The notes: a model not told the origin generated them from the letters alone. DNA of 63,905 bases, filler included, from Reclinomonas americana ATCC 50394 (GCA_048213135.1; 5 parts of 4 records of this genome joined end to end with filler, not necessarily neighbours in it); one strand, 5' to 3'; positions 42,551 through 47,132 are shown, numbered from the whole stretch's first letter. Numbers and translations are program-made.

Positions 42551-45500
42551 ATGGTGTCTTCTGCGATGCGTTCGAGAGAGAGAATGAGAAAATTCAAGAA
42601 GGTGAACAGTGGTCTTGTGTCATTGTCGGAGATGAGCACAGCTGTACAGCGACTTGTGTTGCCGATGACGGTGGAAGTGATGCAGGGAGAGTGAGAGTGT
42701 GGTGCGTAGAATCGCTCCGAAAAGACAGCGTGTGGCAACCTGCAGGACGATGCAGCCACCGAACTCGAAACCGCTCTCTTCGTTGTTTCGAAGTGCGTCT
42801 GTGAGAGCAAGCTTCGTCTTCAGTCTCTGAGTCATGTCAACATTGGAGTTTCGTGTGTGCATGTGCGCCTGCACATGTGCAAAGTCATCCAGTCGCAGCG
42901 GTCTCAAAACCATCTCGCTCAATCTTTTTTTTGCCGCAGGCGACACAAACGTGTGGCGTTGCTCATCGGCAACACGTGCAACGCTTGCGAGCCTGTGGGT
43001 GCATTTGGAGAGCTGAGGATCCCACCACTTGATGTTGGTGTGTGTGTGTGTGTGTGTGCGTGCGCAAGTCGTCGGTGTGTTCTCACCTCTCCGTCTCTCT
43101 CTCTCTTTCTCTTTTTTCTATGGCTATCTCTCTCTCTCCACGCAGAACTTTTGCGGCCAGTGCTCGAGAAGACTGGCTTCCATGTCTGCCCACCGCAAAT
43201 CGATGTGGATGGCGACCGCATGAACGCCGTGCTTAATGCGTTTGTGGAGGGCCACGTGAACGACGAGTGCGAGTGTGTGTTGCTGTTCTTCTCTGGCCAC
43301 GGACTGGCTGTCGACCAAGACCTATTGCTCCTCCCCCACAATGTCAACCGCGTCGCCAGAACAAACCTGGTGAGTTTGTCAATGCGTTATTAAGGCATTG
43401 TTGGTCCACGAAGTTGATTGCGTGTGGTACAGCTGGACGGCAGTAAGTCGCTGAAACTCGTCGGGCACTGCATGCCCGAGCTGCGACGCAAGGCGTCGAA
43501 GGACACTGTTATTATCCTGCTGATGAATTGTTGCCGGGAGGTTGACAGGTAGTTTGTCTTGAATCAGCAAATTTGTTTTTTTCGAGAATCTGACGCCGCC
43601 TTGGTGTGCGTGAACGCAGCTCACACGTGCGGAACGCACGACCAGTTGACGAGAGCATTTTGGCGGACAATGTGTTTGTTGGTTTTGCATGCTCTCACGG
43701 ATGGGAAGTATATGAGGGCGGTGAGTGGTCAGTGTTCTCTGGTCCGTTGGATAAATTCTCACGAGAATTTTGTGTTTGATGTCAAGAATTCGCATCTCCA
43801 TATGTGCGGGCTCTCGTGGATACGATCAGGCTTCATGGCCATCACAGACTGCCTCGGTGGCACGAAGAAGTGAGGTTGAGGCTTGCTCACATGCATCCGA
43901 ATGAACGAGAACAGGAAGCCATGTTTCTCCATCGGCTCTCGGAGCAGGAATTCAAGGAGTTCCGATTTTGGACGCATCCGGGTGAGCCTTTGTTCTCAAC
44001 TCTGCTTGCTTTTTTTTTACTTTCACTTTGACATCTCTCCTGTTGTTCCACGCTTACAGCACCGGCATTCAGCAACCCACCCCTGGCACGATTAATTGCC
44101 CGCACTATCGATCCAGTGACCACATTCTGCTTCCCGAGTCGGCGTGCACTGGCAGTCTCGCTCGCCACACGCATTGTGGATGCTGTGGAAGGTTGGATGT
44201 TCCTTCTCTTTCTCCTTTCCTTCGTTCTTCATGTGTCTGATCTTGTTGTCTGTGCTGTATGATTCCTGCGCAGCACGTCAACCAATCATGGTGGTGTTGA
44301 CGGGTGATGGTGGCGCTGGCAAGTCGTTCTTAGCCCAGCTGCTGGTGACCGAGTTGCAAGCGACTCGACGGTGGAAGGGGTCGGCCGTCTCGGTGGAGAT
44401 GCGTGGTCATGTGGGTGATGCGAGGGAGCATGTGAAGGTGTGTGAGGAACATGCGTGTTGTCTTTCCTATTGCATCATCTCCTTCTTCCGTCATTCTGAC
44501 TCTCTTTTTCTCTCCTCGTCACGCTGCAGGCGAAGAGTGCTCTGGGCGAGTGTCTGCGCGCCTTCGTTTCGGCACAGATGCGGGTGGATGAAGTGGAGGG
44601 ACGAAGAATGGCTAGTGAGGTCGGTGCGCTTCTGACGAGTGGCGGAGTGGAAGTACGGAGAACGGCCGGCCATGTTGGTGCTCTGGCTGAGAGGGATACG
44701 GTTGAACCAGCACGTCGTCTTCTGCGGCAGCTGATGCATGCATCGAGTGGAGTGATGCTGCTGGATAATGCGGGATCGGCGGAGCAAGTGAGGAGTGTTG
44801 TTCAGTGTGCTGATGAGGGTGCGTCTATCATGAGAGACAGAATTTTCTCATTCTTGCTTGGATGTTGGATGCTGACTTGATGTGCATCATGTGTGTGTAT
44901 CTTTGTGCAGGTGGATTGGTGGCACCGATTGTGGTGGTGACAAGTCGATATGGACAAGTGGCGGATGAGATTCGCGACTCGATGAGATACGAGGCGGGGG
45001 TGGAGTGTGTGCGAGTGGAGAGTGTGGAGAACGCGGACATTGTGCAGCTGGTGGAGGAGCGACTGCTCCACAACGTGTCGGGGGATGTGCGACGACGGAT
45101 TGTGGAGGCGCTGGAGAGTGGGCAGCAGGAGAAGAGTGCACTGCGAGTGGGTGCTTGTGTTGGGTGAGTGATTGTGTATTTTGAGTGTGTTGTGAGGATG
45201 AGTAGACTCATTCTACTCTCTTCTCTCCCTCTTTTCTCTCTGCCATGCAGCTGGTTGCTGTTGCAATCGCCAGCACAGTTGGTGGGAGCTCGCCTGGAGG
45301 AAGTGCTGAGTGGTATTGGTGGCGATGCACTGTCGCAGCTGCTGGGGCGCACTGTGATGTCACAGACGGTAGCAGCACGTCGTCTGTTGGTGTTGATCTC
45401 GGCTTGCAAGGAGTTCGGCTTGCCAGTGACTGTGGCACTGGCACGAGTGGCACTGGGTGTGCTGCGAGTGATTCCTGATATGACAATGGCTGTGGGTGGT

Positions 45501-47132
45501 GGTGATGGTGGTGGGCAGGCTGCTGTGGATGAGGATGAGGAGGTGGCAAGTCGACTGGTGGAGTTGGGCCAGTGTGTGCGTCGACTACGACTGCATGAGC
45601 TGGCACAGGAGAGGCGACGGCGTGCGCCGCAGGTGGTGGGTGAGCAACGGCAGTTTGATGAGATGAGTGTTGACGAGGAGCGTAAAGTGCGTGCACGACG
45701 TGATGAGTTGGTGGGTGGTGGTGGTGGTGGTGGTGACGACGAGGGAGTGGAAGGTGTTCTGAACGGACTGTGCCTGTCGAATCTGGTGACGGTGGGTGTC
45801 AGTGGCAGTGTGAACAGTTTGGTTCGTGTGTTGTGTGGCGAGCAAGTGAGAGAGAGGGGTGGAGTGTTGGTGGAGTATCGAGTGCACGATGAGATTGCTG
45901 AGTGGACTGTGGGACGGTGTAGCGATGCAGTGTCACGGATGCAGCGACTGATTGTGCGACTAGTGTGCTGTGTGCTGAATGGCATTGACTTTTGGAATGA
46001 TAGTGATGGTGCGCTGCTGGTGTCGCGTGACTTGCTCGGTGTACTGCACACAGTGTGGAGACGGTTGGGTGAGGATGACGGCATGTGGGCGAGAGCTGCT
46101 GTGGGTGTGAATGGGCTGCTGATTCAGTGTCGAGCGACGAAGTGGATTGCTGGTCTGTGTGCTGTCGGAAATATTTCAGCTCGTGAACTTGACAGAACTG
46201 TGGCCTTGTCGCTCCTGCGACGAGTGACGGAGTGTGAACCATGCAGAGATAGTAGTGATCAACTGTGTCCTCTGGGACGAAGGCTTGAAATTGCAGCGGC
46301 AAAGTGTCGTGCTTGGTTGCTAGACTTGCTGCATGAATGGGAGAGCAACGTGGACGCGTGGCGACAAGCGCGGTCTTTGTGCGAGAAATGGGAGAGGGAC
46401 GGCAACGGCCAGGTGACGGTGCTAGATGCGATTGTGTCATTGAGGTGCTTGATGCGGCTTGCGTACCATTCAAACCAATTGTCACTGCTGGTGGAATGCC
46501 ATGAGCGTCAGCGTGAGAAACTTGGTGAATACCATCCGGACACATTAATGTCTCTGCATTACCGAGGCAAACTCTTCTTTAACGAGGAATGCTATTCTGA
46601 CGCCGAGACATTCTTCCGACAGTGTTGGGATATGCGACGACTTGTTCTCGGGGATGCACATCCAAGCACAATGTCATCTATGAGCAGCCTTGCCTTTTGC
46701 ATCCGAAGTGGTGGTTGTTTAGAGGAGGTTATTGCACTCGAGCGCGACTGCTTGCAGTTGAGACGAGCAGTATTGGGAGATCGGCATCCGAAGACTCTCA
46801 TCTCGCTGAACAACTTCGTTGCTTCTGTCATTATGCGGCAAACACAGGAGTCTCTGGCAGAAGCTGCCGCATTGTACAGGGAGTATTTACAGGGACAGCG
46901 TGAGGTGCTAGGTGACGGGCATGAAGATACTCTGCTGACGATGTACAACTACGGTGTTGTGCTCATGAAGCAACAACGATGGGCTGAGGCAGAGGCACTG
47001 TTGGTGGAGTGTGTGGAAGGTCGGCGAGCGTTGGTTAACAAGGAGGACCCGAAAATTGGAAAAGCTTTGGCCGCTCTGGTCAGGTGCCGACGATGCCGAC
47101 TTGCGAGATGGGCCCGATGCGAGCTGTTGTGA
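42551..47132 (+). CDS. NLR-like protein: paracaspase-like peptidase C14 + STAND (NB-ARC-like) NTPase + C-terminal 42-aa TPR repeats (~1215 aa)
   Basis: Exons 42551-42601, 42710-42852, 42940-43037, 43146-43369, 43433-43548, 43620-43720, 43787-43981, 44060-44191, 44274-44437, 44530-44818, 44911-45163 and 45251-47132 are all GT-AG and keep one frame (3648 nt). Motifs: RVALLIGN, LRIPPLDV, FFSGHG, LMNCCRE, NVFVGFACSHGWEVYE, SPYVRAL; Walker A GDGGAGKS, Walker B VMLLDNA, sensor-1 VVVTSR; LGxxHPxT TPRs. The first two exons are the least certain. Confidence 0.88.

Follow-up and report, generated by a model that had tools for sequence, protein, structure and literature searches.

The window analyzed here is a 63,905-nucleotide (nt) stretch of DNA from Reclinomonas americana ATCC 50394 (GCA_048213135.1), made of five parts of four records joined end to end with filler. 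At positions 42551-47132, it holds an intron-bearing eukaryotic gene whose predicted spliced frame carries a caspase-like protease, an NTPase, and TPR repeats together. We consider it probable that this gene encodes an all-in-one NLR-like protein in which a paracaspase-like Peptidase_C14 protease, a STAND-type NTPase, a helical region, and a C-terminal TPR_10/TPR_12 array form one chain that is activated by proximity. As predicted from the spliced sequence, the order of effector, nucleotide-binding oligomerization domain (NOD), and repeats on one polypeptide is that of an NLR in the broad architectural sense.

Ten exons joined at nine junctions give a single open frame of 1150 codons on the + strand (42940-47132), closed by a TGA stop (Table 1). 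Canonical GT..AG borders are present at 9 of 9 junctions; the introns are 63 to 108 nt long, with a 3' end of CAG in eight and AAG in one, and their G+C content (GC) ranges from 0.41 to 0.52 versus 0.56 in the exons. Retention of an intron would break the reading frame in eight cases, by an in-frame stop in seven introns and by a frameshift at intron 8; only intron 2 allows read-through. That intron (43038-43145, 108 nt) is in frame and stop-free, and its retention would add 36 residues between the first strand and the first helix of the protease without truncating the protein. An earlier reading, made from the sequence alone (here, the sequence-only reading), had proposed 12 exons and about 1215 aa. 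Ten of the 12 exons are supported, but the two at the 5' end, which are compatible with the frame and would add 61 codons to give a protein of 1212 aa, are one choice among many; no Pfam match was found in the open reading frame (ORF) 42392-42691, in the region of these candidate exons. The protein is predicted to be about 1150 to 1212 aa long.

Table 1. Predicted exons, modules, and motifs of the caspase-STAND-TPR gene (positions are those of the window)
Feature	Position	Strand	Remarks
Candidate 5' exons (sequence-only reading)	42551-42690 + 42756-42800	+	Phase fits the acceptor at 42940
Exon 2	42940-43037	+	
Exon 3	43146-43369	+	
Exon 4	43433-43548	+	
Exon 5	43620-43720	+	
Exon 6	43787-43981	+	
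Exon 7	44060-44191	+	Linker and predicted pre-P-loop helix of the NTPase module; ties protease to NTPase
Exon 8	44274-44437	+	
Exon 9	44530-44818	+	
Exon 10	44911-45163	+	
Exon 11 (last exon)	45251-47132	+	
Predicted caspase-fold protease (Peptidase_C14, p20-type, paracaspase-like)	42940-43981	+	Five exons (exons 2-6)
Predicted catalytic His codon	43298-43300	+	In FFSGHG; aligned with the GHG column that is invariant in the bacterial caspase profile
Predicted catalytic Cys codon	43532-43534	+	Second Cys of NCCR; aligned with the Cys in the DaCRdnpf block of the profile
Putative STAND-type P-loop NTPase core	44274-45163	+	Exons 8-10
Walker A, GDGGAGKS	44303-44326	+	Residue 299
Walker B, LLDNA	44758-44772	+	Residue 420
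Sensor-1-like VVTSR	44934-44948	+	
All-helical middle region (predicted)	45251-46450	+	First about 400 codons of the last exon
TPR_10/TPR_12 repeat, putative sensor	46451-47132	+	C-terminal 210 residues; ends at the stop codon, 47130-47132

Scans against Pfam, NCBIfam, and PADLOC were run exon by exon on the unspliced window sequence, and in these exon 3 alone passed the cut-off of Pfam PF00656, Peptidase_C14 (26.0 bits versus 21.4, E 8.9e-6, profile positions 29-86, including the His), which places the N-terminal domain in clan CD/C14. With exon 2 and a read-through of intron 2 added, the score was 26.6 bits. The other four caspase exons, at 32 to 64 residues each, are too short alone, and none of them scored in Pfam when scanned singly. 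The best NCBIfam match of exon 3 was a bacterial caspase subfamily, far below its cut-off. When plasmid records were searched with exon 3 by tblastn, 34 records were returned at E up to 10, none of them significant; among the 30 matches listed, eight lay in genes annotated as "caspase family protein," one in a SUMF1-family gene, and the rest in unrelated or unannotated sequence.

For a reference set, eight loci were taken, of which we kept the seven annotated caspases and dropped a small hypothetical protein (L007). All seven are Peptidase_C14 proteins (E 2e-16 to 3e-44), and their first 330 residues made up a profile hidden Markov model (HMM). Against this model, the spliced protein yields one unbroken domain across four exon junctions (residues 3-195, 63.2 bits). 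The N-terminal 290 aa reach 68.0 bits, exon 3 alone 40.7, and the same region with exon 3 masked 11.4, the maximum from 500 shuffles being 1.0; only the 11.4 bits from outside exon 3 are free of selection, because the references were chosen through weak exon-3 matches. Pairwise alignments to bacterial caspase-family proteins span the whole protease domain, the one to a Bradyrhizobium protein showing 26% identity over 212 aa (blastp, E 8e-15). Because one homology match runs across all five exons, the predicted caspase fold and its His/Cys dyad can be taken as real and the junctions from exon 2 to exon 6 as supported. The p20-type fold is predicted to be complete and in the right order, with strand 1, the His strand, the Cys strand, and then the next strand and helix. 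The C14 caspase-fold protease with intact His and Cys proposed in the sequence-only reading is borne out, and its motifs (SGHG, NCCR, GDGGAGKS, LLDNA, and VVTSR) all lie where it had put them.

To learn which kind of C14 protease this is, we combined exon 3 with the seven bacterial relatives in one profile and compared it with every solved structure. The MALT1 paracaspase was the best match, at about 101 bits, followed by caspase-1 (51), caspase-7 (44), and metacaspase-9 (36). In the alignment, LKAPLVDV and NIVFGYATCQGAEAFE of MALT1 stand opposite LRIPPLDV and NVFVGFACSHGWEVYE of this protein, in agreement with the resemblance that the sequence-only reading had noted for these two segments, and both proteins share an x-C-R motif at the Cys. 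The link to MALT1 is transitive, since it is made via the profile of the bacterial relatives and the window pieces themselves match no caspase-fold chain. The label "paracaspase-like" thus seems fair but indirect. MALT1 is activated by proximity and dimerization on an oligomeric platform, the CBM signalosome. Besides its protease it contains death and Ig domains, and the scaffold to which it is recruited is a separate molecule, whereas here the oligomerizer would be part of the same chain; no death domain or Ig domain was found in any exon in the exon-by-exon Pfam scans, so that the architecture differs from that of a type I paracaspase, and the protein would be at most a "type II" or p20-only paracaspase form.

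In the excerpted text of a 2017 review, "metacaspase-like protease" is the name preferred for p20-only nonmetazoan homologs, for which the paracaspase label is disputed; the same text notes that a D-x-C-R motif fails to separate paracaspases from prokaryotic homologs and gives D-x-C-H(SG) as the Cys motif of metacaspases (PMC5756287). The Cys motif here is N-C-C-R, of the x-C-R kind; the bacterial profile alignment reaches no further than the helix behind strand 5, and neither it nor the exon scans revealed a match of p10 type, so that neither feature expected of metacaspases (types I to III), the D-x-C-H(SG) motif and a calcium-binding p10 domain, was seen. What stands of the "paracaspase effector" in the sequence-only reading is therefore the MALT1-type resemblance; membership in that family does not follow from it, given the lack of death and Ig domains and the disputed label.

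The NTPase module begins with exon 8, which matches 27 P-loop families in Pfam at E up to 1, all at or below cut-off. For a broader comparison, an NB-ARC profile was made from the NOD regions of six bacterial NB-ARC-TPR proteins that a TPR search had returned. This profile scored 11.1 bits on the spliced NTPase region, a value reached by 0 of 500 shuffles. Alignment of the region with the same six proteins by hhalign gave 197 collinear columns at 29% identity (P 1.8e-4), with a probability of only 49%. The alignment starts in exon 7 at an F-x-x-R segment, takes in Walker A, LLDNA, and VVTSR, crosses the junction of exons 10 and 11, and ends at column 201 of the 361 of the template. A phmmer search with the spliced NTPase region against the 19 proteins from the last-exon search described below gave no match. 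Among the nine pieces scanned with PADLOC, none matched Avs or NLR-type models, and generic P-loop matches appeared on exon 8 only. When exons 9 and 10 were compared with plasmids by tblastn, they returned four and three marginal matches, all on unrelated genes. This signal is what a divergent NB-ARC-type STAND core would be expected to give, and we rate it as modest and short of family membership. Of the "STAND P-loop NTPase" in the sequence-only reading, the series of Walker A, LLDNA, and VVTSR, collinear with NB-ARC-TPR proteins, is retained, but no curated NB-ARC or NACHT model is reached at its cut-off.

The C terminus is, by its repeat motifs, unambiguously predicted to be a TPR_10/TPR_12 array. 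Pfam gives TPR_12 at 70 bits (2e-19, cut-off 30.1) and TPR_10 at 68.3 bits (4.4e-19, cut-off 27.5), over five and four stretches, respectively, and the NCBIfam model FxSxx_TPR matches residues 351-601 of the last exon at 4.5e-23. Four LGxxH[P/E]xT units begin at 46521, 46647, 46773, and 46908, with spacings of 42, 42, and 45 residues, and one degenerate unit accompanies them; the "about five LGxxHPxT TPRs" counted earlier are thereby accounted for. The approximately 400 aa that precede the array had no match in a full HMMER scan of 1.84 billion representatives. A structure model of the last exon made by AlphaFold 2 with no alignment was all helix and unusable (mean pLDDT 43, pTM 0.24). The neighbors of the middle region in the ESM Atlas by language-model features were TPR_10/12-type clusters (score 0.95), which we treat as a lead only. 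This region presumably holds the helical domains of the NOD together with degenerate repeats, and the sensor may be a degenerate repeat solenoid much longer than Pfam shows.

The gene stands alone in the collections that we searched. A word-indexed search among longer proteins with the last exon returned 19 matches, each due to the TPRs, and no caspase domain was present in any of them; the same search with exon 3 produced 22 candidates, none of which scored. Exact look-up of five window ORFs in the protein collection found none of them. Exon 3 was also searched against bacterial and archaeal genomes, one per species for 185,579 species, with no close relative detected and a single locus returned. 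That locus (L009, 6001-6069), considered as a caspase, was rejected: it is a 23-residue chance match at 65% identity inside a Streptomyces ORF for a KAS III-like fatty-acid synthase, a case showing that a short peptide-pattern match can pass the tblastn filter.

Because of its introns and the lack of a close bacterial relative of exon 3, contamination and recent transfer are excluded as the source of the gene; an old transfer is a possible origin. The view in the sequence-only reading that this is a resident gene rather than bacterial contamination holds, with at least nine introns and no close bacterial or archaeal relative of exon 3. The region lies in a 64-kb eukaryotic stretch with a GC of about 0.5 to 0.6, many CT/CA microsatellites, and assembly gaps.

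We propose the following cycle, modeled on STAND/NLR proteins and on caspase-fold proteases that dimerization activates. The TPR and helical part would keep the nucleotide switch closed, ADP-bound, and monomeric. Binding of a ligand, possibly a foreign or damage-derived protein, would lead to nucleotide exchange and oligomerization of the NTPase. Oligomerization would gather the N-terminal protease domains and activate them by induced proximity, and the protease would then cut substrates, with cell death or defense as the output. An immune or cell-death function would be in keeping with such a cycle.

Several results weigh against this reading, the low hhalign probability being one of them. 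The curated STAND models all remained below cut-off on the 54-aa exon 8 (NB-ARC, 11.9 versus 23.5 bits; NACHT, 16.2 versus 26.7; nSTAND3, 18.5 versus 27.2; NPHP3_N, 19.0 versus 24.8), a test that was handicapped because the domain was scanned exon by exon. Exons 9 and 10 matched no family in Pfam, NCBIfam, or PADLOC. Without the P-loop exon, the NB-ARC profile fell to 4.9 bits, a score that 3 of the 500 shuffles also attained. The distance from Walker A to Walker B is 121 residues, with a long insert in exon 9, and neither a winged-helix nor an MHD-type element was detected, the hhalign match stopping where it does in the template. In the protease, the second position ahead of the catalytic Cys holds Asn, as against Asp in the bacterial profile and in MALT1, and activity or specificity may therefore differ; single-sequence searches of window pieces against solved structures matched no caspase-fold chain, MALT1 included. 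The collections searched yielded no homolog of the gene, and its function therefore has no backing from conservation. No gasdermin, other executioner, or substrate was recognized in 30 of the 53 listed neighbor ORFs plus 15 in another scan, the ORFs left unscanned overlapping scanned ones or the antisense strand of the gene. At the 5' end, the alternatives number 29 one-exon solutions and 10 well-signaled two-exon solutions, besides an in-frame ATG at 42875. Finally, an ATG at 44180 opens a frame through a retained intron 7 into the P-loop exon (ORF 44180-44635).

The same three modules could serve a role other than pathogen sensing, as a regulated signaling protease, a stress or developmental cell-death protease, or a scaffold. 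MALT1, the closest solved relative of the protease group, is a signaling protease; TPR_NPHP3 and NPHP3_N match weakly, and NPHP3-type NTPase-TPR proteins act in nonimmune contexts; and placozoan NLRs with TPR or WD40 repeats are, in the excerpted text of PMC6321704, regarded as not necessarily pathogen receptors. The 64-kb window contains no paralog or tandem array, and no defense-type neighbor appeared among the scanned ORFs. The effector-NOD-repeat layout with an enzymatic head is, however, tied to conflict and immunity in bacteria and fungi in the portions of the literature drawn on here (PMC7159879, PMC13581612, PMC12881547), and a middle region without detectable relatives fits a fast-evolving gene. 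We regard a nonimmune role as rather unlikely.

The all-in-one protein depends on exon 7, which connects the protease to the NTPase. The frame of this exon (ORF 44032-44262) follows a stop at 44029-44031 and is devoid of ATG codons, so that exon 7 is translatable only if spliced to exon 6. The intervening intron 6 is 78 nt long, runs from GTGAGC to TTACAG, and is 73% pyrimidine. The FxxR...L segment of exon 7 aligns with the conserved pre-P-loop segment of NB-ARC-TPR proteins. Two separate products are conceivable instead: a stand-alone p20-only caspase homolog made from exons 2-6 with intron 6 retained and ending at the stop at 44029-44031, and an NTPase-TPR protein starting from the ATG at 44180. 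Read-through of intron 6 would stop after 16 codons and yield a p20-only protein of roughly 260 aa, typical for eukaryotes according to the excerpted PMC5756287, and ORF 44180-44635 does begin with ATG and pass in frame through intron 7 into the P-loop exon. That NTPase-TPR protein, however, would begin with 32 residues encoded by an intron of 72% pyrimidine and would lose the exon 7 frame together with the pre-P-loop segment that aligns to NB-ARC-TPR proteins, while exon 7 has no ATG in its own frame. With just 78 nt between them and canonical splice signals on both sides, exons 6 and 7 are moreover too close together for a terminator and a promoter to fit in. Two products are, in our assessment, improbable.

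That the gene is a decaying or nonfunctional lineage-specific fusion, such as an old bacterial acquisition that gained introns, with its protease or NTPase inactive, would suit the lack of relatives in any collection searched, the Asn before the catalytic Cys, the long exon 9 insert, and the roughly 70% of effector-position caspase domains that are inactive in one bacterial system class (excerpts of PMC7159879), but 1150 codons remain open over nine introns, the protease keeps its His/Cys dyad and the NTPase its Walker A Lys-Ser and Walker B Asp, and introns and exons differ in composition as in a working gene, which makes this very improbable.

The all-in-one NLR-like protein, which we continue to prefer, has its nearest counterparts in bacteria. 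Proteins joining a metacaspase to NACHT-WD40 or to NB-ARC have been catalogued there (PMC3501461), bacterial conflict systems repeatedly feature caspase domains joined to STAND NTPases and repeats (PMC7159879), and bacterial Apaf-1 orthologs carry a caspase-like head "in place of the CARD" (PMC13581612), each as described in the portion of the source used here. These proteins, among them the Apaf-1 orthologs of cyanobacteria and other multicellular bacteria, have orthocaspase/metacaspase-like heads and share the order C14, STAND NTPase, and repeats with the gene described here; its protease is most similar to bacterial caspase-family proteins, and its TPRs match the bacterial FxSxx_TPR model. 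It differs in lying in a eukaryotic genome with at least nine spliceosomal-type introns. The seven bacterial reference proteins for the protease differ as well, with PG_binding, Sel1, or lectin tails and no STAND modules.

Among eukaryotes, fungal NLRs with S8 or CHAT protease heads, which control gasdermins, are likewise single-chain protease-NOD-repeat proteins (with TPR, WD40, or ANK repeats) in which the protease is the direct output, as laid out in the excerpted PMC12881547. The head here is instead a C14 p20-type protease, and there is no gasdermin-like gene among the scanned neighbors. In a 2014 table of fungal NLR N-terminal domains, no C14 is listed, and the text excerpted with it calls the all-in-one design possibly ancestral (PMC4986451). 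With the Apaf-1/caspase-9 apoptosome and the NLR/caspase-1 inflammasome, the protein would share a STAND NTPase and a repeat sensor that activate a caspase-fold protease by induced proximity. In those animal systems the protease is separate and recruited through CARD or death-fold adaptors, and the repeats are WD40 or LRR, whereas here the protease would be fused, with no adaptor domain, and the repeats are TPRs. NB-ARC-TPR proteins of fungi, placozoans, and cnidarians and bacterial FxSxx-COOH TPR proteins have in common with it the LLDNA-type Walker B, the hhhTSR motif, and TPR_10/12 repeats; their heads are death-fold, TIR, ParA-like, or other domains in the part of PMC6321704 used here, in contrast to a caspase-fold protease, and the NTPase described here is too divergent or too exon-fragmented for NB-ARC thresholds.

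Elsewhere in the window, the neighbors include a calreticulin fragment along with CAP-Gly, pyrophosphatase, and ThiJ-like pieces; searches for Rfam families and tRNAs over the whole window returned nothing. Two tandem single-ORF genes on the opposite strand (47317-47988 and 48645-49445) encode Zn_ribbon_3CxxC_2 domains (E about 1e-14), with acidic tails and weak ZCCHC24_C matches. They point toward the 3' end of the caspase-STAND-TPR gene, the two facing stop codons being separated by 184 nt, and neither exact sequence is in the protein collection. Upstream of the gene, a 58-nt direct repeat (41695-41752 and 42438-42493, 743 nt apart), identical in its first 31 nt and found nowhere else in the window, contains TGAGTCA, which we take to be an AP-1/GCN4-type site, and a perfect 25-nt tandem duplication adjoins it at 42342-42391; the 58-nt repeat may be a duplicated promoter or leader segment. 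The calreticulin ORF (17902-19149, - strand) is split by an assembly gap, and its best matches, 51 to 66% identical, come from groups as far apart as green algae, Rhizaria, euglenids, a jakobid, an amoebozoan, and rotifers, so that the collections hold no close relative of the source lineage. A 654-aa ORF on the - strand (13747-15711) consists of Lys/Asp/Thr/Gly-rich repeats with weak Phasin_2 and Senescence matches and is overlapped by an antisense ORF of similar length; it may encode an LEA- or stress-type repeat protein. The pattern of 44 N, 12 bases, and 44 N that occurs at 26532-26631, 50654-50753, 60438-60537, and 62699-62798 looks like an assembly or masking artifact.

The caspase-STAND-repeat layout is already documented in bacteria; what this gene adds is the layout in an intron-bearing eukaryotic gene, a setting from which it has rarely been reported. 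A search of open-access full text and preprints, with supplementary domain tables outside its scope, turned up no published eukaryotic protein of the C14-STAND-TPR type. We put forward, as possible though on balance doubtful, that the gene is a resident eukaryotic "apoptosome with a built-in caspase," the bacterial caspase-AP-ATPase-repeat design having either survived in a deep-branching eukaryote without a sequenced close relative or been reacquired there before gaining introns. If true, this would contradict the generalization, given in the excerpted text of a 2017 review, that p20-only caspase homologs of eukaryotes are always free of further domains (PMC5756287). Accounts of how bacterial conflict systems led to eukaryotic apoptosomes and inflammasomes usually put the fused protease first and the adaptors later, and in eukaryotes the fused protease state is documented only with S8 or CHAT heads, in fungi. 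A C14-headed eukaryotic gene would offer a tractable case of direct proximity activation without adaptors and would inform whether such genes were inherited or transferred. If the gene is indeed such an apoptosome, and an active one, it would show in a living organism the fused state proposed to precede the recruitment of caspases through CARD and death-fold adaptors.

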